Origin: Lentisphaeria bacterium UBA4640
GTDB taxonomy: Bacteria > Verrucomicrobiota > Lentisphaeria > Victivallales > UBA1829
Assembly (NCBI GenBank): GCA_002405835.1
Contig: DHMO01000042.1
Span: forward strand, 16,036-80,035
DNA length: 64,000 nt
Direction of reading: 5' to 3'
In this document: one piece after another, positions 1 to 41,639 of the stretch
Position numbering within the stretch: position 1 is the stretch's first letter
Layout of the letters: each line of letters begins with the position of its first letter
Translations under genes and position numbers: made by a program
Notes under the pieces: model-generated
What the model was told of the DNA's origin: nothing
The model's database searches: none
Seen by the model: only the letters and a program-made list of their open reading frames with translations

Positions 1-2524
1 TGCCTTTCGTGTCGTAGACCGTGATTGTCTTGTTGAAGGTGAAGACATTCTGAGCAAGAATGTATTTTCCTGTGCGCTGTTTCGCTCCGTCGAGCGTAAT
101 GGTGAAGTTTGCGCCCGAGTCGGAGATTCTGGACCAGTCGTTTACGATTGTGATGCCCGGAATTGCGGCTGCAACATCGAAGTTGAGCGTGCTTCCGGAA
201 TCGAGATACATGTTGCCACCCAATGTCATTTTTCCGGAAACTTTTGCTCCGCTTTTGACTCTGAGATATGCTCCGGAGTTGAGGGTCAGTATATCCGCTG
301 TTTCGCCTTCGTTCAGATACGCATTGCCGTTGACGGAAACATCATTGTACTTGTTTGCCGAGCCGATGGAAGCATATTCCGTATGTTTGTTCATTGTAAA
401 GCCGTTGAGGACTCCGCCGGCTTCCAGAACAATCTGGGTTACGGACGCTGCAGAGGTGTTTACGTCCAGAGTGCCGCCGGAGGAGACTGTGAGACCGGAA
501 GCATTTCCAGCGGCAGAGATGCGTGCCGAACCGCCGGAGGTGATGGTGAGCTGCGAAACGGACGCACCCTGGTAGACCTGAAGAACTCCGGCCAGGGTTC
601 CGCCGGTTATCGAGGTTTTGGCAAGAGCGCTCAGCCAGCCGCCCGAATAGACGGCTCCAAGAGTGGTCTTTGCGGCGACCAGCGTTGCTCTTCCGCCGCT
701 GCTGATGAAGAGATCGGAAACCGTTGCGGAAGTGACCGCCATTGAGCCGATGACGCTCACTCTGGACACAGACTGTCCTTCATAGAGCTTTGCATTGGCG
801 CCGGAAGAGACAACCGAGGAGCCGATGGATATGTTGGCGAGGTTGTCGAAAACCTGCGTCCGTTTCAGAGAGAATCCGTTCAGCGAACCGCCTGCGGAAA
901 CAGTGACATTTGTAACGAGTTCTCCATTGGAACCGATCAGGAAAAGCGTTCCGCCGACGTTGATTTTGATATCGGTGAGCGTCCGGGAGCGGTCGCTGTC
1001 AGTAATCAGGCGTCCGCCGGAGTTGACGATGATTCCGGAACCTTCGGCGAAGCCTTCAAAACGGGCGCTTCCTCCGGAGCTGATGTTCAGATTGGTTGTT
1101 CTGCCGTTCAGTGCGTTCAGGTATCCTCCGTTGAGAATATCGGATTGATCCAGTAATCCGCCGGAAGAAAGGGCTCCCGAACCGTAAAATTTGATGTTAC
1201 GGGCGGTTGCCCCATTGTAGACGGTCATGCTTCCGGTTGCAGCGATCTGTGTATTCGCGAGATATCCTCCGGATCTGACATACATCGTTCCGGAAACGGT
1301 GGTCATGGCGGCGGATTGTCCGGAATAGAGGTTTGCATAAACTCCGGAAGAGACAACTGCATTGCTGAACAGCAGCGAGGAGCCCTGCGGGAGTGTTATG
1401 TCTGTATTGAATGTGAAGCCGTTGACGGTGGCTCTGGAGCTGCAGGTGAGACCGCCGGTGTGAATGGAGGCTCCTTCGGCCAGATAGGCGCTTCCTCCGG
1501 CGTAAATTGTTCCGTTGACTTTTGCTCCGCTGGAGATCTGAGCCACGCCGGTGTTGTGAACATAAACTCTGGAGATGATTGCTCCGGAGGTGGCTGTCAG
1601 AGTTGCGCCGGAGATGTTGATGCTGGAGGCGACACCGTTGCTTTTGACGTCGATGAGTGTCCCGGAGGAAGCATTGAGAGACTGTACGCGTCCGTTGTTA
1701 ACCTCGATCGTTGCGCCGGCCGCCTCGATGCCGTAGGCGCTTCCTCTGACCATGAGGTATGCTCCGGAGCGGAGGGTTGCAGAGGTGAGGTTGGCACCGG
1801 ATGAGATGACTGCGCGTCCGCCGCTGGAAACGGTTGCGTTGGCAAGGCGTCCGCCGCTGGTGACTGTTACGTTTCCGGAGTTGAAGATGGTGATTTGATT
1901 AAGGTTTGCTCCGTAGGTCGCGGATACGTTCCCTGAGGTTTTCAGATATGTGACAGATCCTCCGTTACCGACTTCAAGCAGAGCGTTCGCGTAGAGCGTT
2001 GCGGAGGATACTGTCGCGCTCTGCACTTTTGCTTTCGCGTATGAGGAAAGTGTGAGATAGCTGGCATATCCTGCGTAAAACGTTGCGTTCCAAGCGGAAG
2101 AATTGTTTAAATTTGCGGAGTTTCCGGAGAGCTTAATATCCTGGGCGCTTCCTCCATAGAGAAGTAATTTGCCGAATGCGTTCACGGTCGGACCGTAGGA
2201 GAATGCTCCGGAGTTTACTTCGAGTTTTCCTGCGCTGGAGACTGTTATGTAGTTTGCGGAAGCTCCGGATGATACGATGAGGGAGGCGGAGTCTCTGACT
2301 CCGGTGCTTGTGACGAGTCCGCCGGAGCTGACACGAGCCGTAGCACCCCCGGCAATCAGTGAGGAGGTAAGTGTTCCGTAAACGTACAGCTGATCGAAAT
2401 TGCTTACCACGAGCCCGGATGAGGTAACGCCTTTTTTGATGGTGGACGATGCCGCATAAACCTGCACAGGCTCAAGCCCGTTTTCAGGAACGGTCATGAT
2501 GCCGCTTTGAAGTGTTGCTGTCAT
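1..2524 (-). CDS. Giant beta-helix repeat surface protein (AIDA / autotransporter-passenger-like repeats). This is the N-terminal 841 codons; the ORF continues past position 1.
   Basis: Absent from the supplied track because there is no in-window stop. My own minus-strand translation from the ATG at 2524-2522 (MTATLQSGIMTVPENGLEPVQVYAASSTIKKGVTSSGLVV...) stays open to base 2. An SD (aaggagag) lies about 8 nt upstream. The protein is a near-continuous array of ~19-20 aa units such as NATVSSGGRAVISSGANLTSATLRSGAYLMV and LTITSGGSARISAAGNASGLTVSSGGTLDV. Track ORFs 60..575, 383..745, 795..1148 and 1316..1804 (+) are its antisense shadows. Confidence 0.75.
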   Translation of the reverse strand, partial: MTATLQSGIMTVPENGLEPVQVYAASSTIKKGVTSSGLVVSNFDQLYVYGTLTSSLIAGGATARVSSGGLVTSTGVRDSASLIVSSGASANYITVSSAGKLEVNSGAFSYGPTVNAFGKLLLYGGSAQDIKLSGNSANLNNSSAWNATFYAGYASYLTLSSYAKAKVQSATVSSATLYANALLEVGNGGSVTYLKTSGNVSATYGANLNQITIFNSGNVTVTSGGRLANATVSSGGRAVISSGANLTSATLRSGAYLMVRGSAYGIEAAGATIEVNNGRVQSLNASSGTLIDVKSNGVASSINISGATLTATSGAIISRVYVHNTGVAQISSGAKVNGTIYAGGSAYLAEGASIHTGGLTCSSRATVNGFTFNTDITLPQGSSLLFSNAVVSSGVYANLYSGQSAAMTTVSGTMYVRSGGYLANTQIAATGSMTVYNGATARNIKFYGSGALSSGGLLDQSDILNGGYLNALNGRTTNLNISSGGSARFEGFAEGSGIIVNSGGRLITDSDRSRTLTDIKINVGGTLFLIGSNGELVTNVTVSAGGSLNGFSLKRTQVFDNLANISIGSSVVSSGANAKLYEGQSVSRVSVIGSMAVTSATVSDLFISSGGRATLVAAKTTLGAVYSGGWLSALAKTSITGGTLAGVLQVYQGASVSQLTITSGGSARISAAGNASGLTVSSGGTLDVNTSAASVTQIVLEAGGVLNGFTMNKHTEYASIGSANKYNDVSVNGNAYLNEGETADILTLNSGAYLRVKSGAKVSGKMTLGGNMYLDSGSTLNFDVAAAIPGITIVNDWSRISDSGANFTITLDGAKQRTGKYILAQNVFTFNKTITVYDTKG

Positions 2525-2526
2525 AA

Positions 2527-2587
2527 AATTCTCTCCTTTTGTTGCTTTTTATTGAATTTTAGAATGAATATGAGGCAGGAGAGAACC
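2527..2587 (-). promoter_or_regulatory. Candidate RBS-sequestering hairpin (anti-SD) in the 5' leader of the 1..2524 gene
   Basis: In the mRNA sense, GGUUCUCUCCU (plus-strand 2577-2587) can pair with AGGAGAGAAUU (plus-strand 2527-2537). The second arm contains the Shine-Dalgarno sequence. That gives 9 Watson-Crick pairs plus 2 G-U pairs, with a ~39-nt AU-rich loop. Confidence 0.3.
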
Positions 2588-2648
2588 ACATGGCTGCAGA
2601 GATATAAAGTAATAGTCATGGTAACCTGTCTCCTGATGTTTTTTTGTT

Positions 2649-2676
2649 ACTATACAGCGAAATATAAGAATGTCAA
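2649..2676 (-). promoter_or_regulatory. Sigma70-type promoter for the 1..2524 repeat-protein gene
   Basis: Minus-strand TTGACA (2676-2671), a 16-nt spacer, then TATAGT (2654-2649). This implies a ~120-nt leader. An AT-rich 8-bp hairpin (atgtcaaa/tttgacat, about 2670-2691) overlaps it just after the DUF1848 stop. Confidence 0.4.
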
Positions 2677-2694
2677 ATATTTTTTTGACATAGA

Positions 2695-3492
2695 TCAATT
2701 TGCATAGCAATAGACGCAGTTGTGGCGGCAGGTGGCGTAAGTGCCGATGTCGCGCGAAACGGCACAGCCGCATTCCGGACGCTGACTGCGGTCCTTCGTC
2801 CGCTTGATGATGTGTCCGGTGAGCGTTTCGATGAGATCCGGATCGATGCAGTGTGCGGGCTCGATTCCGGCTGAGGTCAGGTCAAGCGCTTCCGCACAGG
2901 CGGAAATGCGGAGTCCGCGCGATCGCGCCGTTGCGGAAAGCTCGGCGGCAAGGTCTAGCATCTCCGCTTCCGAAGGTTCCCGGAAGACGCGGCATTCCGG
3001 ACGGCGCAGGCATTTTCCGTAAAAATCCATAAAGGAGATGATGCACTGTTTCGTGTGCGGCGCGAGTGCATCGGCCATCCGGCGGAACATTTCGCAATGC
3101 CGTTCCGCAGTCCATTCCGCGGAGAAGATGACCGGATCGTAACGCCAGATCACCTTTCCCGCTCCGATCTGTTCCGAGAGGGAGCGGAAAGTCTGGAGAA
3201 TGCGCCGTTTCGGCGGGAGATTCCGCTCAATATCCGCGCCGTAGGGCGTGATGGTGAACTGAAAATAAAAGCGGTATCCGCGTTCCTCCAGTTCCGGTAG
3301 AAACGGCAGAAGCGGTTCCGGATTCTTGCTCCAGAAGACAATGCACTCCACATCCGCCGGGGCGAGCGACAGCCGTGTCTCCCGTCCCGAATACGGATTG
3401 CGGACGGTGCGGAATCCGGCGCGGATCGACTCCATGAATTCCCGTGCGAAAAACGCCGGAATATCGGTGCGCCTGCTTGCGGAAATAATCAT
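2695..3492 (-). CDS. DUF1848 family protein
   Basis: 265-aa track ORF. The N-terminus (MIISASRRTDIPAFF) and C-terminus (ECGCAVSRDIGTYATCRHNCVYCYAN) match what I recognise as the DUF1848 family. The C-terminal Cys cluster is C-x-C-x11-C-x3-C-x2-C. Confidence 0.8.
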   Translation of the reverse strand: MIISASRRTDIPAFFAREFMESIRAGFRTVRNPYSGRETRLSLAPADVECIVFWSKNPEPLLPFLPELEERGYRFYFQFTITPYGADIERNLPPKRRILQTFRSLSEQIGAGKVIWRYDPVIFSAEWTAERHCEMFRRMADALAPHTKQCIISFMDFYGKCLRRPECRVFREPSEAEMLDLAAELSATARSRGLRISACAEALDLTSAGIEPAHCIDPDLIETLTGHIIKRTKDRSQRPECGCAVSRDIGTYATCRHNCVYCYAN

Positions 3493-3653
3493 GGAGTCCT
3501 CTCCTTAAATAAAATCCGGACGTTCGGGAAGGGCGGACAGACATTGGCATCGGGAATGTGGAGTGAGGCCAACAGCCGTCCATCCGCCCAACCGTAGCCG
3601 GCGGCGATTCCGGACATTTCCGGCTCCTTTCTGAAAAAATAGGTGTTTGATTT

Positions 3654-3681
3654 TTTATAACACGGTTTCGGAAAAATGCAA
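3654..3681 (-). promoter_or_regulatory. Candidate promoter for the DUF1848 gene, implying a ~155-nt GC-rich leader
   Basis: Minus-strand TTGCAT (3681-3676), a 16-nt spacer, then TATAAA (3659-3654). The leader contains complementary segments, for example GGGCGGA...TCCGCCC. Confidence 0.3.
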
Positions 3682-3909
3682 GCTGTGGAATGTTTTTTGT
3701 GTTCTTTACAGAAAAAATCGCTCTCTATCTGAGCGGATTTGATAAGAATGATTTTTATTCAATAGATAATGAGTTTTTTAAATATAAGTTAATCGGAGAA
3801 TGGAAATTTTCCAGATGCTTACTTACATAGAACAGAGAGAAGATGGTTGCATGGTGAAATACTGTATTGGAATGGAGGTTCTGTTTTGAGTAAAGATGAT
3901 CTTTGATGC

Positions 3910-3937
3910 TTGACAAATTTGTTTTTTGGTGTATATT
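3910..3937 (+). promoter_or_regulatory. Near-consensus sigma70 promoter for the Pmp-repeat protein gene
   Basis: TTGACA (3910-3915), a 16-nt spacer, then TATATT (3932-3937). It lies about 115 nt upstream of the ATG at 4051. An SD (aaagggga) sits directly before the start. Confidence 0.45.
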
Positions 3938-4050
3938 ATTGTGCTAGAAGTGAGAGATTATTTGAGCGTTGCTCTTTGGCTTGATGGTTAAATGTAGCGA
4001 TTCTCTCTCATTGTAAAACTTGTAATTTATGTTGAGTATGAAAGGGGAAG

Positions 4051-7000
4051 ATGACTATGTCTACACTTGGACAGGGAAAAATAGAAGAAGTAAGAATCTG
4101 CAACAGTTGTGATTTTTTGTCAGGAGATATGTCAAAAAATTCAGAAGCGAGCCTTTATGAATTTTCTTATTCAAATAGTTTTAATGTTGCATCTTCAGAT
4201 GTGAAAACTATTGCAAATAGTAAATATTGCAGTAGTGGAACTGCTGTAGTTCAGAGTAGCGGTACTTTAAAGCTGGAGAATGTCGAATTTGTAAATAATA
4301 GCCGTGGAATGTTTCTTGAGAACACTGTTTTGGAAGGAAATTCTGTTACCTTTACCAGTCAAACCAGTGGAGGAATTGTACAAAATGGTGGAAATATGCG
4401 ACTTAGTAATGCTAGTTTTGTGGGTAATGTAGTTCGTTCTTCTGGAACAAATAAATCTGTTGTGGCATTAGGTGGTGCTGTTTTAAAATCAGGTGGACTC
4501 TTGGAAATAACTTCGGGGACGTTCGCGAAAAATGGAGCGTCTGCTTATTCCATCGTTTCTGCTAATACATCAGCTTTTGCTTATGGAGGGGCTGTTCTGC
4601 TTCAAAATGGAGATTTAAAATTACAGGCTGTTCGTTTTTTGTCAAATAATGTTTCTGCTTATGCTGATGGAAAAAACACAACATCTTTAGATGGGTCTTC
4701 TTATGCATCAGGAGGAGCCGTTGCAGGCTCTTATGGCAGTATGACTTTTAATTCTGTTGATTTTTTAGGGAATTATGCATCAGCATGTGCAGATGTATCC
4801 GCATATGCCTACGGAGGTGGGGTTGCAATGAAGACTGGGAGTATGCTTCTGTCTTCTACTATTTTTGCAAGTAATTATGTTTCAGCATATTCTTTTTATG
4901 ATAAATATGCCAGAGTTTCGGCTTTTGGTGGAGCAATGTCAATACAATCAGGAACAGTTGATGTCTTAAAAACAACTTTTGAAAATAATAAGGCTTTAGC
5001 TTCTGCTTCTGGATATAATCCTTTGACTTGTGCCAAAGGAGGAGGTATTTATCAAATATCAGGAAATATGGTATGTGACAATGGTATTTTTACTTCGAAT
5101 ATTGCTTCAGCAAAATATGCTCAAGGAGGGGCCATATATCATTCAAATGGAAGTATTCAGATGAATGATGTTACCTTTTCGGGCAATAGTGCATATGGAT
5201 ATGGAAGTATTTCTGGAGGCTTTTGTTCTGGAGGAGCTATTAATAAAAATGGAGGTAATATGAAGATTGCCTCTGCTTCATTTATCGGAAATGTTGCATC
5301 AGCATTCGGTGATGGGCCTGGAGATGGATATAGTTATGGGGGTACAATTAATATAGAGAATGCAGAAGAAATGTTTATTTCTTCTGCAAAGTTTTCAAGG
5401 AATCTTGCTGCTGCTACAGGTGATGGTTCTTGTTATGGAGGTGCTGTTAATGCAAAAAATGTTGAGCGTATTGTAATTTCATCGGCTGGGTTTTATGAAA
5501 ATATTGCATTGGCTTCTGGTTATAAAGATGCTGCATCAGCTTACGGTGGAGCAGTTAATGCTGCTGGTTGTAAAGATGTCGAGATTGATACTGTTGTTTT
5601 TCGTAATAATTCTGTATATGGAAGCAATGTCTTAGGTTATGGAGCTCGTGGCTATGGAGCTTATGGAGGAGCTGTTTATGTTGATGGAGGTGTAATAAAA
5701 TTTACAAATACCGTATTCTTGGAGAATAAGGCCAATAGTGGTAAGGCATATGGTTATGGGGGGGCAATCTACCTTGCAGATGGTTGCATGGGCACTTACA
5801 CAGTTACGAATGGTATGGTTGTTGAGAATATAGGAAATAATGCTTCCTGTGGAGGCTTTTTATATTTGGGCTTAGAATCAAAACTGACTTTTTGTGCTCA
5901 AGATTCCGCCAAAATAATCATTGGGAGTTCGAGTTTGGCGACAGATTCTATTGCAGGGACTGGAACATTGCTGAAAACAGGCAATGGCACAATGACGATT
6001 CATTCTGATATTTCCGGATTTTTGGGGCAGTGGCGCATTGTCAAAGGTCGCCTTGAACTTCTATCGCGTGCTCGTTCGATGTCTCTGGACAATTGGAATG
6101 TGGCTGCCTCTGCGGAAGTCGTGTTTGGTGATTTTGATGATTCGCTAACGATCAGCATGCAAAAAACGTTCGGGTATATTGATCTTGGAAATGGCGCAAA
6201 CAATATTTTCGTTGGAGCTGAAACTTCTTTTACAGAACTCAAATCCGGAGCCGGAAACGATATAGTTACCTTTGATGACACAGTTCGAGTTGGTTCTATC
6301 AATCTCGGGGCGGGAAGCAATCAAATCTATGTTAACAGTAAGTTGACCATTGGTTCTAGTATTATCCTCAATATTGACGGGGCGACGAATTTTGTTGTTG
6401 GGACGGAGGCTTCAATTGCAGATAATACATTAACCGCCGTTTTTCGGAATTCTTCTGCCAATCTTGGAACTGCAGGTTATAATTGGACCAATCTTATGAA
6501 TGTACAGAAAGTGCGGATTCAGGTGTCGTCAGATAAAACGTTCGACAGTCCGCAATTTACTTTGCTGCTTGAAAATGGCATAAAGGACTTTACATTGAAA
6601 TCGGACAAGGAGAATTATGTCCGACTACAGATTTTTGATGGGAAAAACTGGACTACTAGTTTGTTTACAGATGCCGTTGCGCCTGATCAAGTGACAGGGC
6701 TTCAGTCTGTGGCGTCGGAAAGAACTGTGGCTGTCGTTTGGGATGCGTCATCCGACAATCTTGGCGGAAGTGGAATTCAATATTACACAGTGCAGGTCGC
6801 ATCGGATTCTGACTTTACTGTTGATCTTAAAACATACAATGCAGCAGATACTTATCAGCTCCTTTCAAGTTTTGCTTCCGGTATGAATTACTGGCGTGTC
6901 CGGGCTGTGGATTACGCGGGGAACATTGGCGCTTGGAGCGCTGTTTCGAGCTTTAATTCAGATGTGATTCCTCCGACAAATCCTTCGGATCTTTCTGTAA

Positions 7001-8133
7001 ATGTGGATCGCCAGAATGCATTATTGAAATGGAGAGAAAGCTCGGATCACGGATCTGGTGTAAAAGAGTATATTGTGACTTGGTGGAACGGTTCCTCAAA
7101 GCATTCGGCAACAACCTCTTCAACAGGTTATTTGATTACCGGGCTTGCAGAATCTGGCTGGAGCTGGAGTGTTCAGGCCGTTGACAATGCTGGCAACAAG
7201 TCGGATATCGTATTCGGACGGTCTTTTAATGTTCTTGGAACAAATACTACTACAGTGAAGAATGACATCAATGGCAATCAGATCAGCGATGTTATCTTCC
7301 AGTTTACTGGCGGCGATAATCAGATTGGGTTCTGGATGGATGGAAAGGCTCTGTGGCGAGGTCAAGGGCTCGCAGAGCCTGCGGATTGGAAAGTCCTCGG
7401 AGCGTACGATATGAATTCAAATGGTAAAGCTGATGTTGTCATGTTGGGGAATGTTACCGTCAATGGTGTGAAAGGTGCGTATATCGGTTACCGCAAGGAT
7501 GGTGATATGGAAACATGGGAGAATATCAGTTATCTGACGAATTCCGATAATATAAACTGGAATATAAAGATTGGGAATGTTACAGGAAATGCCGCAAAGA
7601 ATTCGATTGTCTGGCATGCGGCCGAACTTGGCGTTCTCGGGGTGTGGACCGATGGTACCGATAACTGGATTTCTCTCGCGACCGGGTTTGATTCCAACTG
7701 GAAGATGATTGGAACAGGGGATTTTGGTGGCAACAGCAGAGATGAAATTCTTTTCCAGAATGGCTCCTCCTTCTATACAACAGATATTGATGGCAATTTC
7801 CGTGTGCTTGGCGGACTTGGTGAAGGGTGGAGCGTTAAAGCTATCGGTGATTTTCAGGGGGATCACAAGGAGGATATCATTTTGGAACATGAAGCAACCG
7901 GACTTTGTGCACGACTTGAAAATGGGCTCGCTTCTCAATACTTGATCTTAGGGCAGCTTGATACTTCTGACTGGTTTATCTGCGGAGCCGGAGACTATGA
8001 TGGTGATGGAAAAGATGATTTGTTGGTTCGTCAGCATTCAACAGGAATGCTCGGTTATTACTCTGGCGGAGATTTTTCAAAATGGAATGAAATGGGGCGC
8101 GGAGTTGATATGAACTGGGCTGTGATTGCCTGA
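4051..8133 (+). CDS. 1360-aa multidomain surface/adhesin-like protein. Domains: polymorphic-membrane-protein (Pmp) type GGA[ILV]/FxxN repeats, a PATR-like beta-strand repeat, 2 x fibronectin type III, and FG-GAP/VCBS-like beta-propeller repeats.
   Basis: - At least 14 alternating FxxN and GGA(I/V/L) motifs, e.g. FVNNSRG, FAKNGAS..YGGAVLL, FLSNNVS..SGGAVAG, FENNKAL..KGGGIYQ, FTSNIAS..QGGAIYH, FRNNSVY..YGGAVYV, FLENKAN..YGGAIYL.
- A PATR-like motif: AGTGTLLKTGNGTMTI...IVKGRLEL.
- Three degenerate GxGxD/N units: LGNGANNIF, SGAGNDIVT, LGAGSNQIY.
- Two FN3-like modules, around aa 876-1062 (..WRVRAVDYAGNIGAWS.. and ..WSVQAVDNAGNKS..).
- Five to six DxNGDGxxD-like blades: DINGNQISDVIF, DMNSNGKADVVM, GDFGGNSRDEILF, GDFQGDHKEDIIL, GDYDGDGKDDLLV.
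- No hydrophobic N-terminal signal peptide and no C-terminal beta-barrel. Confidence 0.9.
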   Translation: MTMSTLGQGKIEEVRICNSCDFLSGDMSKNSEASLYEFSYSNSFNVASSDVKTIANSKYCSSGTAVVQSSGTLKLENVEFVNNSRGMFLENTVLEGNSVTFTSQTSGGIVQNGGNMRLSNASFVGNVVRSSGTNKSVVALGGAVLKSGGLLEITSGTFAKNGASAYSIVSANTSAFAYGGAVLLQNGDLKLQAVRFLSNNVSAYADGKNTTSLDGSSYASGGAVAGSYGSMTFNSVDFLGNYASACADVSAYAYGGGVAMKTGSMLLSSTIFASNYVSAYSFYDKYARVSAFGGAMSIQSGTVDVLKTTFENNKALASASGYNPLTCAKGGGIYQISGNMVCDNGIFTSNIASAKYAQGGAIYHSNGSIQMNDVTFSGNSAYGYGSISGGFCSGGAINKNGGNMKIASASFIGNVASAFGDGPGDGYSYGGTINIENAEEMFISSAKFSRNLAAATGDGSCYGGAVNAKNVERIVISSAGFYENIALASGYKDAASAYGGAVNAAGCKDVEIDTVVFRNNSVYGSNVLGYGARGYGAYGGAVYVDGGVIKFTNTVFLENKANSGKAYGYGGAIYLADGCMGTYTVTNGMVVENIGNNASCGGFLYLGLESKLTFCAQDSAKIIIGSSSLATDSIAGTGTLLKTGNGTMTIHSDISGFLGQWRIVKGRLELLSRARSMSLDNWNVAASAEVVFGDFDDSLTISMQKTFGYIDLGNGANNIFVGAETSFTELKSGAGNDIVTFDDTVRVGSINLGAGSNQIYVNSKLTIGSSIILNIDGATNFVVGTEASIADNTLTAVFRNSSANLGTAGYNWTNLMNVQKVRIQVSSDKTFDSPQFTLLLENGIKDFTLKSDKENYVRLQIFDGKNWTTSLFTDAVAPDQVTGLQSVASERTVAVVWDASSDNLGGSGIQYYTVQVASDSDFTVDLKTYNAADTYQLLSSFASGMNYWRVRAVDYAGNIGAWSAVSSFNSDVIPPTNPSDLSVNVDRQNALLKWRESSDHGSGVKEYIVTWWNGSSKHSATTSSTGYLITGLAESGWSWSVQAVDNAGNKSDIVFGRSFNVLGTNTTTVKNDINGNQISDVIFQFTGGDNQIGFWMDGKALWRGQGLAEPADWKVLGAYDMNSNGKADVVMLGNVTVNGVKGAYIGYRKDGDMETWENISYLTNSDNINWNIKIGNVTGNAAKNSIVWHAAELGVLGVWTDGTDNWISLATGFDSNWKMIGTGDFGGNSRDEILFQNGSSFYTTDIDGNFRVLGGLGEGWSVKAIGDFQGDHKEDIILEHEATGLCARLENGLASQYLILGQLDTSDWFICGAGDYDGDGKDDLLVRQHSTGMLGYYSGGDFSKWNEMGRGVDMNWAVIA
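4282..5880 (+). repeat. Intragenic tandem array of Pmp-type (FxxN / GGA[ILV]) repeat units, each about 25-40 aa
   Basis: Motif periodicity seen across aa ~78-610 of the 4051..8133 product. This DNA is the most AT-rich part of the window. Confidence 0.7.
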
Positions 8134-8197
8134 ATCTTTCTTTGGGAAAGCGATAAAGGCTGAGCAAGGAGATGGTTGATCCATATCGTGCTATCTG

Positions 8198-9205
8198 TTA
8201 CTTTTTCCGGAAAAGTTCGCGGATGAGGGCGGAGATCTCCGGCTCAATGAGGGCGGAACCGACGACGAGAACCATTCCGCCGATCTGGCAGAGCGTAATC
8301 GTCTGGGCGAAAAACAGCCAGCCGAGAAGCGCGGTCAGCATCGGAGTGAAATAACCCGAAACTGCGAGCAGCCCGGTGGAAATGTAGCGCTGGGCATTGT
8401 TCCATGAGAAGAACGCGAGCGCGGTCGGAATCAGTCCGAGATAGGCTGTGCAGAGAATATCCGGAAGCAGTGCTGGAATATGGACCGGAAAGCCCGCCGC
8501 AAGCTGGAAGAGCAGAATCCAGAGTCCGGCGAAAAGAACGCTCCATGAGGTGTAAAGCAGACCGCCGATCCGTTTGATTGTCCGGTGGGCGAGCACGGTG
8601 TAGAGCGCCCAGCAGAACGCGCCGGCGAACACCATCGCGTCGCCAAAGGAAACGGAACTGATAGTCAGTCCTTTTGCGCTGATGACTTTCAGCACAAGCA
8701 TGCTTCCGGCAAAACCGGCGCAGAGACCCGCGGTCTGAAGCGCCGAGGTCGGATTCCGCAGAATGAAGAGTCCGAGCACGAAGATCATCAGAGGGGCCTC
8801 CGCCTCCAGCAGCGAGGCGTTGACGACCGGAATGCCGAGACTCTGTCCGTAAAACAGAAACACGCTCATTCCGGCGGCGAAAATACTCTGGAAAATCAGA
8901 TGAAACCAGTCTTTCCCGCGAATCTCCGCCCAGGGATGTTTGCGGTTCGCAACGGCAAAAACAAGGAGCATGACAACGCCCGCCATCAGGAAGCGCAGCT
9001 GCGCCATGCTGTAGCAGTCGACATTGCCGCGAGTGACCAGGAAGCTGACCGCCGGGAAAAGCGTTCCCCAGCACACAACACTGACCGCCGCCCAGAAAAT
9101 CCCCGGAACAGCGGGATGTGTTTTTGTGAATTCAGAAAGATTTGCGCTCATAGTTTGTCCTCTCATAGAATCCGGTAATATACCATCGGATGCCGTGCTT
9201 TTCAA
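8198..9205 (-). CDS. DMT superfamily (EamA-type) permease
   Basis: The track ORF has about 10 hydrophobic segments in two EamA-like halves. The true start is more likely the ATG at 9151 (MSANLSEFTKTHPAVPGIFWAAV...), because the 9205 start abuts the upstream stop. Confidence 0.8.
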   Translation of the reverse strand: MKSTASDGILPDSMRGQTMSANLSEFTKTHPAVPGIFWAAVSVVCWGTLFPAVSFLVTRGNVDCYSMAQLRFLMAGVVMLLVFAVANRKHPWAEIRGKDWFHLIFQSIFAAGMSVFLFYGQSLGIPVVNASLLEAEAPLMIFVLGLFILRNPTSALQTAGLCAGFAGSMLVLKVISAKGLTISSVSFGDAMVFAGAFCWALYTVLAHRTIKRIGGLLYTSWSVLFAGLWILLFQLAAGFPVHIPALLPDILCTAYLGLIPTALAFFSWNNAQRYISTGLLAVSGYFTPMLTALLGWLFFAQTITLCQIGGMVLVVGSALIEPEISALIRELFRKK

Positions 9206-10219
9206 TCAGATAAATTCCGCGGGGATGATGACGGAGCGCGGTTTGCGGCGTGTGTTGATGGCGTGGATCAGCTGTTCGGCAATCTTGATTCCGCATTCGC
9301 GGCGCGGGACTCTGACTGTATGGCGACCGGACGGGACGCCGGGGAGGGGGAGCCCGTCGCAGCCGATGACGGGGATGCTGATGTTGTGTTCGCGGAGCCC
9401 CTGGAGAATTCCGGGCAGCTGGTGGTCGTACGCGGCTATGAGGGCGTCCGGACGGGTTCGTTCGAGGAGATTTTCGAGCGCGGAGGCGCCGCTTTCCGCG
9501 AGCGGGCGGACGTTTTCGATGAGCGCGGGATCAGTCTGGCGGTATCGCTGAAGAGCCTTGAGATAGGCGTCGAACTTCCGCATCTGCTGGAGATTGACAT
9601 AGCTCCGGGTCTGCCCGATGAAGGCGATTTTTGAACAGCCCTGCGCGATGAGCCAGTCCACGGCGTCGCGGATGCCGTCTGTGAAATCGAACGCGACTTG
9701 CGGAATTGCGGGATCATCGACGGGGTCGCATGCGGAAATGAACGGGACATGGGCGGCGGCGATGCGGTCGAGCACATGTTTTTCGCCGATTCCGAGCACG
9801 ATTTTCCCTGTGGAAGCGCAAAGGGAGAAGCGGTCGAGACGCAGCAGTCCTGTTTCGGGGTCGGATTCGAGCATATTGAGAATGGTGCGGTATCCGGCGG
9901 CGGAGAGTTTCTGCATCATGCCTTCCCAGATTTCGTTCCAGAAGGGGTGAGTGAAGATGGTTGTGAAACCCTCGAAGATGACTTCGATCATGCGTTCTGG
10001 ATAGAGTTCTCTGCGGTTCTGGATGATGCGTGTTCCCGCCCGTTTTTTGCGTTCGAGCAGTCCCGCCTCGACGAGTCTTGCAACGGCTTTGTTTGCGGTT
10101 TTGATATTGACCCCGAATTCCTCCGCGAGGGTGAGCGTGTTGGGCAGCCGGTCGGTGTAGACTCCGTCCGCGATTCTCCGTTTCAGCTCCTCCGCAATAT
10201 GCGCCTGTTTGTATTCCAT
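9206..10219 (-). CDS. Transcriptional regulator with a GntR-type winged-helix N-terminus and a periplasmic-binding-protein (LacI-type sugar-binding) C-terminal domain
   Basis: The N-terminal HTH is LPNTLTLAEEFGVNIKTANKAVARLVEAGLLERKKRAGTRI. The remaining ~270 aa have the alternating beta/alpha pattern of the PBP type-1 fold (..KIAFIGQTRSY.., ..ALIAAYDHQLPGILQGLREHNISIP..VIGCDG). Confidence 0.8.
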   Translation of the reverse strand: MEYKQAHIAEELKRRIADGVYTDRLPNTLTLAEEFGVNIKTANKAVARLVEAGLLERKKRAGTRIIQNRRELYPERMIEVIFEGFTTIFTHPFWNEIWEGMMQKLSAAGYRTILNMLESDPETGLLRLDRFSLCASTGKIVLGIGEKHVLDRIAAAHVPFISACDPVDDPAIPQVAFDFTDGIRDAVDWLIAQGCSKIAFIGQTRSYVNLQQMRKFDAYLKALQRYRQTDPALIENVRPLAESGASALENLLERTRPDALIAAYDHQLPGILQGLREHNISIPVIGCDGLPLPGVPSGRHTVRVPRRECGIKIAEQLIHAINTRRKPRSVIIPAEFI

Positions 10220-10316
10220 GACTTACGCCTGACAGAATCCTTTATTGAAATTTCAGAAAAGATAGCACATGTTTTCGGAAAAACAAGAGATGAAAAACAG
10301 ATTCGGAAATAAAGAA

Positions 10317-10380
10317 CATGGTCACCGGCTCGGCCGGTGACCATGCGGGGATCGAGCGATTGCTCCGGAGGCAATCGCTC
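10317..10380 (-). terminator. Tandem hairpins ending the dehydrogenase/isomerase/GH57-like operon
   Basis: One perfect stem is catggtcaccgg/ccggtgaccatg (10317-10345). The second is gagcgattgc/gcaatcgctc (10354-10380). Both lie directly downstream of the stop at 10400 on the minus strand. The distal hairpin is followed by a T-rich run on the minus strand. Confidence 0.5.
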
Positions 10381-10399
10381 TCGGTGAATCAGTGGCGGA

Positions 10400-11779
10400 T
10401 TATTCGCCGAAATATTTCTGATCCATCAGTTCCTTCTCGATCAGCTTGATCTGCGTTTCCATCAGCGGTGCAGAGTAGATCGCACGCTTCTCAGCAATGC
10501 CGCCTTTCTCCATCGCTTCGCCGAGGAACTTGTTCGCGGCAAACAGATCGTCAATCGACTCGCGGACGTTGAAGCGTCCCGGGGTGGTCGGCAGCGGGGG
10601 CCAACGGGAGTCGGAAACGTATGCGGATGTCACAGCCTTCATCGCCTTGTCAAGCTCCGGCGTGTTGCCGATGTGCTTGCGGACCGCGACAATGCCGTCG
10701 TAGACCATGCGGCAGACCGGGTCGAAGATCAGAGAATAGCTCGTGTTCGCCCATGCCTTGTAGGTTCCGCCATGCCATGCGGCGCCGTTTTCGATGTGGT
10801 CGATCAGATCGTTCTTGATCAGCTCTGTGGCGTTGTTGATCACTTCACCCGGAGTGGTGAGTTCGTAGCCGATGCTCTTCGCCATGTCGAGAAGCTCTTT
10901 GAAGCGCTGGACGGACTTCGGTTCCGGCTCGAAGAAGCGGGCCTGGTTGAACTGCTTCACATAGAAGTAGGCGGAAGAACCGATGTATTCCGCATCTTCC
11001 GCGTACGGCATGATGAAGGAACCGGTCTGCGCAATGCGCGGCTGCCACTTCAGGAACATTTCCTTGATTTCGTCGAGGCTGACCGGAGTTTCGCGGCAGC
11101 CTTCCGTCGCGCCCATCAGGTACCAGAGCATCGGGTTTGCCATGCAGTCGGAGCGGAAGACCATGCGGAGACCGTTCGGAGCAACCGACGGATTCGTCAG
11201 GTACTTCAGGAATTCCGGCTTGTCCTTGATGTATTCTTCAATCTTGAAGAGGTGGTTCTTGTTGGAGTGACCCTGAACGTCATATTTGAGCCCGGTCGCC
11301 TGACGGATTTCCGGGAAGGAGAGGAAGAAGCTGTCGGCGTCCATGACGAGGTTTTTGTAGCCGGCTTCCTTGTAGATTTCGGGGAGGTAGGAGGCCCAGC
11401 CGCACTCCGGATTCCATCCGGTTTCGGGGCGGACGCCGGTGTATTTTTCCCATGCTTCAAGACCGTGCTTGAGGGTGTCCAGTCCGATTTCCGGCGGAAC
11501 GTTCGCGAGCATCACGTGGATGAACGGGGATGCAACCGGTTCAATTTTGCCTTCCTTGACCAGTTCACGGAGGAGGGCGAGGACGGCCGGAGCCTCCTGA
11601 TCCATCACTTCAAGCGTTCTGCCGGAAGCCTCGAACGCGACTTTGTAATCGCCGTCGCGGACGAGTTCAAAAAGCGGGCGGTAGCAGTTTTCGCAGACCC
11701 ATGCGCGGCGCTTCGGGTCGAGCTGCGAATACTGGATGTTCGCATGAGGCATAAAAATGACTTGCGGTTTGTTCGACAT
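10400..11779 (-). CDS. GH57-like glycoside hydrolase fold protein (family assignment tentative)
   Basis: 459 aa. GH57-like motifs: FMPHANIQY, GKIEPVASPFIHVMLANVPPE, and GWNPECGWASYLPEIYKEAGYKNLVMD (a W-x-P-E-type nucleophile region). Coding status is strong; function is uncertain. Confidence 0.55.
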   Translation of the reverse strand: MSNKPQVIFMPHANIQYSQLDPKRRAWVCENCYRPLFELVRDGDYKVAFEASGRTLEVMDQEAPAVLALLRELVKEGKIEPVASPFIHVMLANVPPEIGLDTLKHGLEAWEKYTGVRPETGWNPECGWASYLPEIYKEAGYKNLVMDADSFFLSFPEIRQATGLKYDVQGHSNKNHLFKIEEYIKDKPEFLKYLTNPSVAPNGLRMVFRSDCMANPMLWYLMGATEGCRETPVSLDEIKEMFLKWQPRIAQTGSFIMPYAEDAEYIGSSAYFYVKQFNQARFFEPEPKSVQRFKELLDMAKSIGYELTTPGEVINNATELIKNDLIDHIENGAAWHGGTYKAWANTSYSLIFDPVCRMVYDGIVAVRKHIGNTPELDKAMKAVTSAYVSDSRWPPLPTTPGRFNVRESIDDLFAANKFLGEAMEKGGIAEKRAIYSAPLMETQIKLIEKELMDQKYFGE

Positions 11780-11826
11780 TTATTTGTCTCCTTTATTTAG
11801 GTTGGTTGTGAATGTATTCTTCTGTT

Positions 11827-12642
11827 TCAAGCCTCGTGCGCTTTCAGGAAGTTCAGGCTGCGGGTCATGCCGTCTTCGACGTCTTCGGGAAGTTCGTACT
11901 CGATCATTGCGGGACCGTCGAACTCCTTGAGAACTTCCATGAGCCGCGCCCAGTTGAGGCGTCCTTCTCCGCACGCCGCCGGGCGCACGCCGCCTTCCAC
12001 ATCGCGGAAGTCCTTGAGGTGGACATAGGCGATGGCTTCCTTGAACTGACGGAAGAATCCGACGGCGCAGGTGGTTCCGACCGCGGTCAGATTCGCGGGG
12101 TCATAGGCGCAGGAAACACCCGTCTTCACGATCTCTTTCCAGATATCGGTACGGGTGGATGTACTGTTGAAATGCACGAGCGCGCCGTTATCCAGGCATG
12201 CGACTCCGCCGTGGGTTTCCACGCAGAGACGGACGCCGGTGTTTTTTGCGTAATCGCTGACTTCCTTCAGCGCTGCGAGCATCTTCACGAGCCGATCGCC
12301 GATGACCACACTGTCGGAATTGAATCCGGCGAAGATGCGGAGATAGCGGAGACCGAGCTTTGCGGCGATGTCGATGACTTCCTTCACCTTCTTGACCTGT
12401 TCGGCAACGTCGTCGCCGGTGAAGTCGTTTCCGGTGCAGCCGCACTCAAGACGGATTCCGTACTGGCGGAACAGCTCCTTCACATGTTCGATCTGCGCAT
12501 CGGTTGCGCCGAGCTGAAGGGCGTCCTTGTCATAGTTCGCAATGGAGAATTCCAGCAGTTCCAGTCCGAGCTTTTTTGTGAGGGCGAGCTGGGATTCGAG
12601 GGACTCTTCGCGGAGTCCCCAGGCGGCGAGACCGTACCGCAT
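11827..12642 (-). CDS. Sugar phosphate isomerase/epimerase (xylose isomerase-like TIM barrel)
   Basis: I trimmed the track ORF 11827..12810 to the ATG at 12642 (MRYGLAAWGL...), which overlaps the upstream stop as TGATG. It has typical AP-endonuclease-2/TIM-barrel segments (LRYLRIFAG, VRLCVETHGG, VHLKD, IEYE). Confidence 0.8.
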   Translation of the reverse strand: MRYGLAAWGLREESLESQLALTKKLGLELLEFSIANYDKDALQLGATDAQIEHVKELFRQYGIRLECGCTGNDFTGDDVAEQVKKVKEVIDIAAKLGLRYLRIFAGFNSDSVVIGDRLVKMLAALKEVSDYAKNTGVRLCVETHGGVACLDNGALVHFNSTSTRTDIWKEIVKTGVSCAYDPANLTAVGTTCAVGFFRQFKEAIAYVHLKDFRDVEGGVRPAACGEGRLNWARLMEVLKEFDGPAMIEYELPEDVEDGMTRSLNFLKAHEA

Positions 12643-29691: not shown

Positions 29692-29970
29692 TCAGTTCTG
29701 CGGAGGAAAATCGTATTCGCGTTCAAAGGCGGCGGCGATGATTTCGATCGCTTCGGCTTCGTTTTTCCCTGTCGCCTGAAGGGTCGCTTCGTCGCCCTGC
29801 TGGAGTCCGAGCGCGAGAAGTTCGAGAATGCTGTGCATGGAGGCGGTTCCGCTTTCCGCTCTGAGTTCAAAGCTGACGTCCGGGAATTTGTCAACTTCCG
29901 CCATGATGGCGCTTGACGGTCTGCAGTGAATTCCGGCGCGGTTCTTGATGACGACTTTTTTTGCAACCAT
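29692..29970 (-). CDS. ptsH: HPr-family phosphocarrier protein
   Basis: 92 aa. The active-site region NRAGIHCRPSS keeps the His15 and Arg17 equivalents. The Ser46-like region is ASMHSILELLALGLQQG. Confidence 0.85.
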   Translation of the reverse strand: MVAKKVVIKNRAGIHCRPSSAIMAEVDKFPDVSFELRAESGTASMHSILELLALGLQQGDEATLQATGKNEAEAIEIIAAAFEREYDFPPQN

Positions 29971-30150
29971 GATTGTTCGGTTCCTCCGGTTGTGTTGATA
30001 GTGTACGGACTTTCTTAAATATAGCTCATGAACGCCGATGTTGCAAACCCGTGAAGAGGTTTTCCGGTGTTTTTTGCAATTTGATTTGAATTCCGCAAAA
30101 AAGATGATATTTTACCAGTTGAAAATGAACTTTATTTTAAAGGAGTTTTT

Positions 30151-31482
30151 ATGGCTATTACTACGGAAGGCGAGCTGATGGACAAGATCGTTACGCTGTG
30201 CAAGCGTCGCGGTTTTGTGTTTCAGAGTTCGGAAATTTACGGCGGTTTCAACGGTTTCTGGGATTACGGTCCGTACGGAACCGCGATGAAACGCGCGATC
30301 GAACAGCTCTGGTGGAGCGAAATGGTGGAAAAACGCGATGACGTCGTCGGACTCGACTCCACGGTCATCTGTCACCCGAAAGTCTGGAAGGCTTCCGGTC
30401 ATATCGACCGTTTCGGCGACATCATGTGCGACTGCAAACACTGCAAGGCGCGTCACCGCGTCGATCAGATGCCTGACCCGAAGGTCTGCCCGAACTGCGG
30501 GTCCACCGACCTTACCCCGCCGCGCGAGTTCAACCTCATGATGAAAACTTACGTCGGACCTGTCTTTGACGATGAACACGTCGCTTACCTCCGTGCGGAA
30601 ACCTGCCAGCCGATCTTCGTGGATTTCCACCTGATCCGCATTGCGACCCGCATGCAGCTGCCGTTCGGTATTGCCCAGATCGGAAAATCCTTCCGTAACG
30701 AAATCACCCCGCGCATGTTCACCTTCCGTTCCCGTGAATTCACGCAGATGGAAATGGAATATTTCTGCCCGGACAAGGGTTCGATGGAAGTCTGGGAACA
30801 CTGGCGTGACACCCGCTACAAATACTATCGCGAGAAACTCCAGTTCCGCGAAGACGAGATTCAGTTCCATCCGCACGACAAACTTGCGCACTATGCGAAA
30901 GCTGCGGTTGATATTGAGTTCAAGTTCCCGTTCGGCTGGGGCGAACTCGAAGGCATTCATCACCGCGGAACCTGGGATATGTCCCGTCATCAGGAATATT
31001 CTTCGCAGAATCTCGAATATTTCGATCCCGCCACCGGCGAGAAGTATCTCCCGACCGTTGTCGAGACCTCTGTCGGACTCGACCGCACGTTCCTTGCTGT
31101 TCTCTCCCACGCCTACGACGAGCAGAAGGCTCCGACGAAGAAAGAGGGAATGGAAGAGGACGTCCGCATTGTTCTGCACATCCCGCCGCGCATTGCGCCG
31201 GTTCAGGTTGCCGTGATGCCGCTTTCCAAGAAGCTGAACGACAAGGCTCTTGCTCTCCGCAAGGATCTCTGGGACAGCTTCCGCACCGAGGCGGACGTTA
31301 CGGGCAACATCGGCAAGCGCTATCGCCGTCAGGACGAAATCGGCACGCCGTTCTGCGTGACCTACGACTTCGATTCCGAGAGCGACAATGCCGTCACGGT
31401 CCGCGACCGCGACACGATGGAGCAGGAGCGTGTCTCCCTTGACAATCTGAAAGCCTATCTCTCCGAGAAGATCAACGGCTGA
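30151..31482 (+). CDS. glyQS: Glycine--tRNA ligase (dimeric GlyQS type)
   Basis: 443 aa. Segments: RRGFVFQSSEIYGG..G.WDYGPYG, IGKSFRNEITPR, and a C-terminal anticodon-binding domain. Confidence 0.95.
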   Translation: MAITTEGELMDKIVTLCKRRGFVFQSSEIYGGFNGFWDYGPYGTAMKRAIEQLWWSEMVEKRDDVVGLDSTVICHPKVWKASGHIDRFGDIMCDCKHCKARHRVDQMPDPKVCPNCGSTDLTPPREFNLMMKTYVGPVFDDEHVAYLRAETCQPIFVDFHLIRIATRMQLPFGIAQIGKSFRNEITPRMFTFRSREFTQMEMEYFCPDKGSMEVWEHWRDTRYKYYREKLQFREDEIQFHPHDKLAHYAKAAVDIEFKFPFGWGELEGIHHRGTWDMSRHQEYSSQNLEYFDPATGEKYLPTVVETSVGLDRTFLAVLSHAYDEQKAPTKKEGMEEDVRIVLHIPPRIAPVQVAVMPLSKKLNDKALALRKDLWDSFRTEADVTGNIGKRYRRQDEIGTPFCVTYDFDSESDNAVTVRDRDTMEQERVSLDNLKAYLSEKING

Positions 31483-31693
31483 TGATATTTTCTCCCTCTT
31501 TTTTCGATATATAAAAATGTCGCGAAAAGAGGGAGGGAAAACTCCATAGTATGAAGAAGTTTTTTTCTTTTATCTTCTATCTTGCAAATGTGCGCAATAA
31601 TTCGGACACTACCAAAGGACACGGATCGGAAACAGGTTCTTCTGAAATACTTCAAGCAGAATAAGAGACGTTGATCTGACGGCGCATGACAGT

Positions 31694-31726
31694 AAAAAAG
31701 CGGAGGTGCTGCCTCCGCTTTTTTTT
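31694..31726. terminator. Bidirectional rho-independent terminator between glyQS and rsmG
   Basis: aaaaaa-gcggagg-tgctg-cctccgc-tttttttt: a 7-bp GC stem flanked by A- and T-tracts. Confidence 0.6.
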
Positions 31727-31744
31727 GAAAATGCCGTATGTTTT

Positions 31745-41026: not shown

Positions 41027-41639
41027 AACTGACCTCCTTCATATTGATTTCCGAGGTTATTTTTTCAAGACATACTCCGATGTCCTGATAGGTTTCGAGA
41101 ATTTTTTCCGCGAGGCTTTCGACGGAGCTGTAGAGTTTCATTCTGCGGAGCGACTCCGCCGGGTCGCCGAACACCTGCCAGATTCCGTGCGGAACCGGCG
41201 TCCGTTTTTCTTTGCGCAGATAGCCGATGACGTCTTTCGGCGGATATCCGAGGAAGAATCCGATTTCATGCGGCAGATTTTCTTCGTCAAACCGCTTCTG
41301 CAGAAATTTCAAAGCCGCGGCGACGGAGAGTTCTTCCGGATAGCCGAGCCGTGCGAGTTCCTCCCGGATGACCGGATTGCGGAGAGTCTCCTGCAGCAGT
41401 TCCGGCTGATAGAACAGAAGTAGCGAACTTTCCGCATCTTTGCGGAGAAAACGGCATGGAAGACGGAGTGTCGCGAGGATTTCCGCCTGATGAATGCAGA
41501 AACTCTGTTCGGGTTTGCTCCGGTAGCATTTTCTGACCCGCAGGAATTCCGCCGGTTTGACGCCGCTCCGCACAGGGGCGGTTTTAATCAGAAGAAACTT
41601 CATCAGCTCCTTCCGGTGTTCGCACTGTTCGCCGCTCAT
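41019..41639 (-). CDS. DUF3793-like protein
   Basis: 206 aa. The SGVKPAEFL and LPHEIGFFLGYPPKDVIGYL segments match my recollection of DUF3793. It overlaps fldA by 8 nt. Confidence 0.55.
   Translation of the reverse strand: MSGEQCEHRKELMKFLLIKTAPVRSGVKPAEFLRVRKCYRSKPEQSFCIHQAEILATLRLPCRFLRKDAESSLLLFYQPELLQETLRNPVIREELARLGYPEELSVAAALKFLQKRFDEENLPHEIGFFLGYPPKDVIGYLRKEKRTPVPHGIWQVFGDPAESLRRMKLYSSVESLAEKILETYQDIGVCLEKITSEINMKEVSYV

Follow-up and report, generated by a model that had tools for sequence, protein, structure and literature searches.

How does an AT-rich stretch with one very large gene come to stand between two conserved genes of a chromosome of higher G+C content, and what does such a gene encode? 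The question is raised by a locus of Lentisphaeria bacterium UBA4640, which lies in a 64,000-nucleotide stretch of contig DHMO01000042.1 (assembly GCA_002405835.1, positions 16,036 to 80,035 of the forward strand), here called the window. The window is ordinary chromosome, encoding LpxD, a type II/IV secretion ATPase, a tRNA synthetase, RuvB and a transketolase, and proteins of the flanks belong to 90%-identity clusters in which the members that have names come from “Lentisphaeria bacterium”. An initial annotation of the window, made from the sequence alone, had pointed out an AT-rich island with a single adhesin-like gene, for which either a foreign origin or a repeat-driven constraint on composition was proposed. 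The comparisons reported here make it likely that the block at 3538-8196 is a strain-specific replacement haplotype, whose core (from 3684 or 3690 to 8197) is a horizontally acquired islet of 4.5 kb that encodes a putative adhesin of a large protein family.

The variable block and its haplotypes

The block is held between two conserved genes. On its left stands a DUF1848 gene (2695-3492, minus strand; Pfam PF08902, E 1.9e-97), and nucleotide identity to the conspecific contigs holds at 99.8% as far as 3537; on its right, conspecific identity picks up again at 8197, next to a convergent gene for an EamA-family transporter (8198-9151, minus strand; Pfam EamA, E 2.1e-35). The breakpoints against these contigs are 3537|3538 and 8196|8197, the latter lying one base before the EamA stop codon, which gives a precise position to the abrupt end that had been noticed at this gene.

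Four conspecific contigs (L099, L100, L102 and L103), which are 99.1-99.8% identical to the window at the nucleotide level on both sides of the block, carry a 3.66-kb operon in place of 3538-8196. This operon, made up of the genes of a LacI regulator, a GH3 hydrolase and a 283-aa protein (LacI-GH3-283aa), has a host-like G+C content of 0.58-0.64, and its genes are also found in nine contigs of a sister species (L001, L089-L094, L096 and L097). The first of these, L001, is the human-gut metagenome-assembled genome UMGS1182, the only close genome in a species-level collection, with flanks 92-94% identical in nucleotides; no paper naming UMGS1182 was found in the literature, and the other conspecific and sister-species contigs were recovered by exact-protein look-ups. 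One further sister-species contig, L095, has neither the three-gene operon nor the island, and presents an empty site with a 19-bp spacer, which reads GCAAGC|GGGGGAGAGAGGAGGGGGA|TTACTTTTT and has a homologous counterpart in L001 and L099. When synteny is compared in this manner, the island gene is missing from the same locus in four conspecific and ten sister-species contigs, and it is present in at least four samples.

Between the left breakpoint and the island proper there is a remnant segment (3538-3683, minus strand), which comprises a 42-codon remnant open reading frame (ORF) and a LacI-like upstream region (3615-3683). The remnant ORF (3492-3617, minus strand) has its start codon at 3617-3615, in a LacI-like start region, and overlaps the start codon of the DUF1848 gene; it has 42 codons in the window versus 71 in L095 (9789-10004), the window copy having a further 87-bp deletion. 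With the sister-species L095 the segment has 91.6% identity, as against only 79% with the LacI upstream region of the conspecific L099. The AT-rich island proper follows (3684-8197, plus strand; about 4.5 kb, G+C 0.410), with a left edge that is uncertain by 6 nt (3684 or 3690), and it takes the place of most of the G-rich 19-bp spacer that separates the EamA stop codon from the LacI-like upstream remnant.

The locus has at least three haplotypes, which are the three-gene operon, a “deleted” form in which a small remnant ORF is left, and this deleted form with the island. As the 19-bp spacer is found in both of the other haplotypes and in both species, the island is the derived state.

Composition and origin of the island

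The shift in composition reported initially for 3640-8190 is borne out by a G+C content of 0.409, versus 0.565 elsewhere in the window. At a scale of 500 nt, G+C runs at 0.32-0.46 over about 3500-8250, with flanks at 0.51-0.61, and at a scale of 2 kb it is 0.51 or higher everywhere outside the island. The 581 segments of 500 nt outside the island have a mean G+C of 0.565 (standard deviation 0.034), against which those inside it have a mean of 0.411 (z = -4.5) and a highest value of 0.478 (z = -2.6). Codon usage is also strongly aberrant in relation to the host genes of the window, which served as the reference (29 genes, 10,889 codons, all from the 64 kb): G+C at third codon positions (GC3) is 0.319 in the island gene versus 0.702 in host genes, for an overall gene G+C of 0.417, the codon adaptation index on the host-gene reference is 0.383 versus 0.704 +/- 0.063 (z = -5.1), and the codon TTA is used 11 times per 1000 codons versus 0.4 times, a 27-fold difference. 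The foreign origin suggested in the initial annotation is therefore supported by both the aberrant codon usage and the absence of the gene from the same locus in relatives.

The alternative offered there, a compositional constraint imposed by the repeats, is rejected, given that the island protein re-encoded with the codon preferences of the host would have a G+C content of 0.553 and a GC3 of 0.698. The amino-acid content accounts for only about 0.025 of the G+C deficit of 0.16, and the remainder is synonymous choice. Within the gene, GC3 rises at codon 553 from 0.18 to 0.42 (a maximum-likelihood single change point, with a log-likelihood gain of 45), and this step, which falls at 5707-5712 on the plus strand, at about nt 5709, agrees with the earlier impression that the shift is strongest over 3640-6000. 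The island gene is a two-part compositional mosaic, neither part of which resembles the host GC3 of 0.70.

With regard to the vehicle of transfer, the lack of mobility signals remarked on initially holds, as the window has no tRNA and neither direct nor inverted repeats are found at the ends of the island. A transposon- or integrase-type insertion was rejected, given that terminal repeats, a target-site duplication and a tRNA are all lacking. An origin from a phage, plasmid or virus was also discarded, since no sequence matches were obtained, either when the whole block was compared by blastn with 72,556 plasmids and 50,697 phages or in a scan of viral contigs with the N-terminal half of the protein, and the viral fold matches are to generic beta-helices (best E 0.0023).

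The best whole-protein relatives of the island protein share only its C-terminal 290 aa (72-75% identity), the N-terminal part being no more than 34-36% identical; when the AT-rich N-terminal 551 aa were searched on their own, identity did not exceed 29%, and the best relative of this half, P0264, carries a generic Pfam Beta_helix domain. As no donor match is available, the source and the direction of the original transfer are read from composition alone. The contigs that carry homologs have PVC-type genes, such as DUF1559/SBP_bac_10 in L079, and one of them (L080) is syntenic with the window at 60.4-64 kb, with 76% identity. The donor probably belonged to the same bacterial lineage and had a lower G+C content, given that the family of the C-terminal module has a resident paralog and has homologs on contigs with PVC-type genes.

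The events at the locus may be reconstructed as follows. The gene, itself recombinant, would have come from a lower-G+C donor, given that neither of its GC3 halves (0.18 and 0.42) fits the host value of 0.70. It would have been inserted into the 19-bp intergenic spacer after the EamA stop codon by illegitimate recombination, which is the most likely route because there is no transposase or site-specific integrase signature, and the insertion would have occurred on a background haplotype without the LacI-GH3-283aa operon that is present in most strains. The island may then have spread within the population by homologous recombination in its two conserved flanks, DUF1848 and EamA. It is similar to the small genomic islets that carry strain-variable surface genes, with which it shares aberrant G+C and codons, a sporadic presence among near-identical strains, a single cargo gene with its own promoter, an intergenic site 3' of a conserved gene, and alternative haplotypes. 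It differs from classical islands in lacking an integrase, a transposase, a tRNA and direct repeats, and its cargo is a two-part mosaic.

Other histories of the locus have to be weighed against an acquired islet. It is scarcely credible that the gene is native and old, and that it became AT-rich through its Gly/Ser/Asn/Ala-rich repeats or through selection on them. The protein is repetitive (G 12.9%, S 11.3%, A 9.0%, N 8.2%), and G+C at the first and second codon positions lies slightly under the host values, but the observed 41.7% G+C and GC3 of 0.319 are far from the 55.3% and 0.698 that are expected with host codons, the 367 nt of the island that are non-coding are AT-rich as well (0.324 G+C), the resident paralog has similar repeats and yet a GC3 of 0.61-0.76, and conspecific strains lack the gene in spite of flanks that are 99.1-99.8% identical. 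A history in which the island is ancestral to the locus and was deleted in other strains, with the LacI-GH3-283aa operon as the newcomer, draws on the fact that the locus is clearly a hot spot, with its three or more haplotypes, and that the remnant at 3538-3689 is an old diverged allele, with 79% identity to the haplotype of the conspecifics and 92% to L095. This history is nonetheless very improbable, as the three-gene operon is host-like in G+C and is found in both species, the spacer at the exact insertion point is common to the operon and empty haplotypes and missing only with the island, and the composition of the island is at odds with the host.

The reality of the junctions was also considered, given that the source is probably a metagenome-assembled genome, that the island is found as separate short contigs in two samples, and that several flank contigs halt at its edge. 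These contigs, L105 (window 3483-8282) and L106 (window 3508-8257), both 100% identical to the window and about 4.8 kb in length, consist of the variable block with 30-86 nt of correct flank at each end, and the flank contigs of the same two samples (L101 and L104) end at 8228. An artefact of assembly or binning, in which a piece of a lower-G+C organism was wrongly joined, would nevertheless be most surprising, as the flanks of L105 and L106 are correct at both ends, an independent assembly (L088) matches window 1129-4586 at 99.97% identity and crosses the left junction, linking 2.4 kb of left flank with the first 900 nt of the island, and the exact island protein is also on record in contigs of 20-200 kb. 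The C-terminal domain family of the island protein has, in addition, a resident paralog 500 nt away, and bubble contigs of lower coverage are to be expected from strain polymorphism. In sample ERZ26859199, the coverage is 26 for the island contig L105 and 63 for the flank contig L101. L105 and L106 are bubbles of the assembly graph, and they indicate that a single gut sample contains both strains that have the island and strains that lack it.

The island gene, its protein and the propeller family

The acquired islet carries one gene, as had been described, in a single ORF at 4051-8133 (plus strand), which encodes 1360 aa from the ATG at 4051. Public gene calls start at the ATG at 4057, which gives 1358 aa and is better spaced from the ribosome-binding site AAAGGGG (4041-4047), and the ORF has no room for a start further upstream. 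The other ORFs of the island are all antisense within this gene (6000-6320, 7120-7365 and 7417-7938) and were judged spurious.

The island carries a putative sigma-70-like promoter at 3910-3937 (plus strand; TTGACA at 3910-3915, a 16-nt spacer and TATATT at 3932-3937), which had been recognised initially and which matches 11 of the 12 consensus positions, being the best site in 3400-8400. The putative 5' leader that follows it (3944-4056, plus strand) is about 106-113 nt in length, close to the 115 nt first estimated. The leader folds no better than its shuffles (z = -0.86) and has zero matches in Rfam at E <= 1, so a regulatory RNA was discarded. An invertible promoter or phase-variation switch was discarded as well, since inverted repeats flanking 3684-4050 were not found, and the promoter spacer has only a T6 tract, which is not long enough to suggest slippage. 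At the left edge of the island, a terminator-like hairpin with a T-run (3719-3735, minus strand) is oriented toward the DUF1848 gene, and could insulate the left flank from antisense transcription leaving the island.

The island protein has a mass of 143 kDa, an acidic pI of 4.7 and 14 Cys residues. Its N-terminal 43 residues (4051-4179, plus strand) are hydrophilic and predicted to be disordered (AlphaFold confidence, pLDDT, below 50), and they contain no signal peptide, given a maximum Kyte-Doolittle hydropathy of 0.42 in the first 75 aa (15-residue window); searches of the N-terminus for a lipobox and for a twin-arginine motif also found none.

Residues ~44-730 (4180-6240, plus strand) are predicted to form a right-handed beta-solenoid with short beta strands throughout (mean pLDDT 84.4, pTM 0.88). 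Between residues 80 and 605, 14 GGx[ILVM] and 15 FxxN motifs alternate in about 13 Pmp-like turns of 29-42 residues each. All of the top fold matches of the solenoid are beta-helix proteins (Ag43, pertactin, tailspikes, lyases), none of them significant, and the remote sequence matches are to Pmp and autotransporter proteins (E 1e-4 to 1e-7). The top Pfam match of the repeat region, Chlam_PMP (PF02415), remains below threshold (12.8 bits versus a cut-off of 20.6, E 0.16), no Pmp-type model appears in an NCBIfam scan at E <= 0.1, and a sequence search of solved structures with the island protein returned nothing significant.

The solenoid is followed by two FN3 domains at residues ~880-1070 (6670-7260, plus strand), which are supported by AlphaFold, by Pfam fn3 at residues 977-1050 (E 1.7e-6) and by Foldseek matches to tandem FN3 structures (E 1e-8 to 1e-9). 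The C-terminal 290 aa (residues 1071-1360; 7261-8130, plus strand), which end in ...GVDMNWAVIA, are assigned by Pfam and AlphaFold to an FG-GAP-type beta-propeller. When scanned alone, this segment passes the Pfam cut-offs of both FG-GAP (29.0 bits, cut-off 22.1) and FG-GAP_3 (27.3 bits, cut-off 26.9), and its model, with a pLDDT of about 90, has a predicted roughly six four-stranded blades. Foldseek matches are to FN3-plus-propeller receptors (E 1e-10 to 1e-13), to the propellers of ROS1/Sevenless and LRP6, and to that of the glycan-binding UmbA4, with a TMq of 0.50. Calcium-loop motifs of the type D-x-D/N-x-D/N-G are found in the protein. On the other hand, Pfam finds no autotransporter barrel (PF03797) and no RTX repeat model in it, and a regular expression for the RTX nonapeptide (GGxGxDxUx) finds none.

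Given the lack of a signal peptide and of an autotransporter barrel, the island protein is not a Pmp or an autotransporter, although its predicted helix is Pmp-like. The label “Pmp-repeat” under which the gene was first described is thus kept for the GGx[ILVM] and FxxN motifs, and falls for the protein as a whole, in view of the sub-threshold Chlam_PMP match and the missing signal peptide and barrel.

It is the C-terminal module that places the protein among its relatives. Residues 1071-1360 share 48-75% identity with the C-termini of P0001-P0008, P0011 and P0114-P0182, and 67-75% with those of many proteins with unrelated N-terminal parts; 37 columns are invariant in an alignment of 13 sequences. 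Of 1.84 billion cluster representatives (at 50% identity), 224 match the module at E <= 1e-30, and among the best 75 nearly all have the whole of it at the extreme C-terminus of proteins of ~300-5340 aa. Nearly all of the ~70 termini that were compared end in G(R/Y)GVDMNW(A/T)VIA, the N-terminal regions of the family are unrelated or only 25-36% identical, and no signal-peptide-like N-terminus was seen among ~80 members inspected; VIA forms the last three residues of every member looked at. In Pfam and NCBIfam, generic FG-GAP repeat models were matched and no family-specific one, and with the terms tried no paper describing such a C-terminal-propeller family was found. To judge from these alignments, the island protein is a member of a large undescribed family of giants with no predicted signal peptide, with variable N-terminal solenoids and an invariant C-terminal propeller.

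A second member is the left neighbour of the locus, of which the window holds the N-terminal 841 aa (1-2524, minus strand), the propeller lying beyond the window start. Over these 841 aa it is 100% identical to a 1173-aa gene product of the conspecific L099 (16699-20220), and it is 99.3% identical to P0119, which ends in ...GVDMDWTVIA. This resident paralog has AIDA-like SSGG repeats (a weak Pfam AIDA match), no signal peptide, and host-like GC3 values of 0.61 and 0.76. The island gene was rejected as a recent duplicate of it, since their modules are only 67% identical in amino acids and 64% in nucleotides. In the sister species, the paralog is reduced to a frameshifted 103-aa remnant (L001 10983-11470), in which the N-terminal repeats are fused to the final 60 aa of the propeller.

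Several family copies are found per region, with two in the window and two in each of three homolog loci. A GC3 that is low at the 5' end and high at the 3' end, as in the island gene, recurs in P0002 (0.24, 0.41, 0.77), P0003 and P0010, and is absent from P0007, P0008 and P0011, which are uniform. The presence of the same GC3 mosaic in several homologs suggests that variable N-terminal parts have repeatedly been recombined onto the conserved module. The homolog genes with this gradient are located at L079 8581-11670, at L082 2994-7892 and 12014-13399, and at L083 339-5870 and 7281-11618, and the part that encodes the C-terminal propeller is GC-rich in them even on contigs of only 45-51% G+C.

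Possible surface display, other functions and minor features

The C-terminal propeller may direct export and/or surface retention, perhaps through binding of a surface glycan, while the variable beta-helix would be displayed as an adhesin or as a variable surface antigen; a strain that gained or lost such genes would have its surface altered. A connection with surface glycans is suggested by the neighbourhoods of homologs. P0003 and P0010 are preceded by genes for TibC-type (PF21129) heptosyltransferases (L082 1533-2594; L083 5978-7249), and P0010 and P0012 are followed by genes for glycosyltransferases and for Wzm/Wzt transporters of the ATP-binding cassette (ABC) type (L081 4046-13229; L083 11628-20092), which suggests that family members are glycosylated or tied to the synthesis of surface glycans and fits glycosylated adhesins of the AIDA/TibA type.

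Known systems resemble the island protein in part. Chlamydial Pmp proteins, which are type Va autotransporters, also have GGA[ILV] and FxxN motifs some 30-40 residues apart on a predicted right-handed beta-helix, and both belong to the PVC superphylum, although the island protein lacks their signal peptide and barrel and has FN3 domains and an FG-GAP propeller at its C-terminus. With AIDA-I, TibA and Ag43 it has in common a long beta-helix passenger, which is predicted in its case, Ag43 being among the top (non-significant) fold matches; other family members, including the neighbouring paralog, match AIDA repeats weakly, and TibC-type genes stand beside P0003 and P0010. Unlike these adhesins, the island protein has neither a Sec signal nor a barrel, and no TibC-like glycosyltransferase is found in the 64-kb window.

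One conserved C-terminal domain on many otherwise unrelated giants, with several paralogs per genome, is also a feature of the C-terminal sorting domains of type IX and type I secretion, and the island protein is like type I substrates in being acidic and in having no signal peptide. The domain here is, however, a 290-aa FG-GAP propeller, whereas that of type IX is a small beta-sandwich whose substrates carry Sec signals. In contrast with type I RTX adhesins, there are no RTX nonapeptides, and no genes for ABC, membrane fusion (MFP) or TolC components were detected in 15 window ORFs or called beside the homologs, in a survey that covers 64 kb of the genome. The propeller itself is similar to FG-GAP/integrin-alpha-type and lectin propellers in its above-threshold FG-GAP match, its calcium-loop motifs and its model of some six blades, but it has only 9-14% identity to solved propellers (among the propeller-containing Foldseek matches), and the toxin and umbrella components that accompany UmbA4 in the umbrella toxin particles of Streptomyces are not present here.

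Several points weigh against an acquired islet that encodes an adhesin. Mobility genes, a tRNA, terminal repeats and a target-site duplication were all looked for at the island and none was found, and no donor emerged among 5.8 billion proteins, where the AT-rich N-terminal half reaches identities of no more than 29-36%. The poor codon match could limit expression of the gene, and the promoter at 3910-3937 matches the sigma-70 consensus by sequence only. The protein has no signal peptide, barrel or RTX motif, and no type I secretion genes were found among the 15 window ORFs that were scanned. The beta-helix fold predicted for it is also that of polysaccharide lyases and tailspikes, with which an enzymatic role would be compatible. 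Finally, the family was delimited in protein libraries that carry no taxonomy.

Two other readings of the protein deserve attention, the first of which leaves the origin of the island as it is and sees in its product a secreted or surface beta-helix enzyme, which could be a polysaccharide lyase, a glycosidase or an epimerase and would be directed to a glycan by a lectin-like propeller. The nearest folds include alginate lyases, epimerases, a pectin methylesterase, capsule depolymerases and phage tailspikes, P0264 carries its generic Beta_helix domain, the propeller resembles the UmbA4 lectin, and the host is rich in glycoside hydrolases. This reading is unlikely, as the fold matches are all non-significant (E > 0.002), no catalytic family is detected by Pfam or NCBIfam, and the GGA[ILV]/FxxN periodicity, the remote Pmp and autotransporter similarity and the TibC-type genes beside homologs point to passengers of the adhesin type. 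A tentative extension, for which we would claim a modest chance at best, is that the propeller is the recognition or anchoring domain of an undescribed export and display pathway for signal-peptide-less beta-helix giants, possibly specific to Lentisphaeria, in a role comparable to that of the type IX C-terminal domain in Bacteroidota. The AT-rich islands and GC3 mosaics would then be the footprint of an exchange of cassettes, in which “heads” from diverse donors are swapped onto the conserved module, so that the cell surface would differ from strain to strain.

As for what the acquired islet means, the kind of event is ordinary, a textbook compositional island, and it is the resolution that is unusual, with breakpoints at the level of the base, an empty site and three haplotypes. 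Less ordinary are the two-part mosaic gene, the three-haplotype locus and the large uncharacterised propeller family. A little-studied lineage of the human gut swaps a sugar-utilisation operon for a giant surface-type protein, and differences of this sort between strains can have effects on colonisation and on recognition by the immune system. Of more use is a by-product of the analysis, in that it delimits a large protein family without annotation, with at least 224 clusters at 50% identity.

Other variable sites lie to the right of the EamA gene. UMGS1182 has an AT-rich insertion of its own (L001 1477-4260, plus strand; 2.8 kb, G+C 0.40-0.52), which contains a complete MmeI-type IIG restriction-modification gene and stands between a GntR/LacI regulator and a GH57 gene, at a point equivalent to window 10228|10234; the window and the remaining sister-species contigs do not have it. 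An AXE1 (acetyl xylan esterase) gene, located between AP_endonuc_2 and GH57 in sister-species contigs (L089 1409-2689), is absent from the window (11826-11829) and from the conspecifics, and constitutes another indel of the same 10-kb neighbourhood. In comparison with L099, L100, L102 and L103, the window also has a hot spot of single-nucleotide polymorphisms at 10000-10500, with 19 differences per 500 nt versus 0-8 elsewhere, which is centred on the intergenic 10220-10400, where L101 has zero differences. Much smaller dips in G+C (0.42-0.48 at a scale of 500 nt), which are probably intergenic, are found at 29701-30400, 31301-32000, 41401-41900 and 50301-51100.

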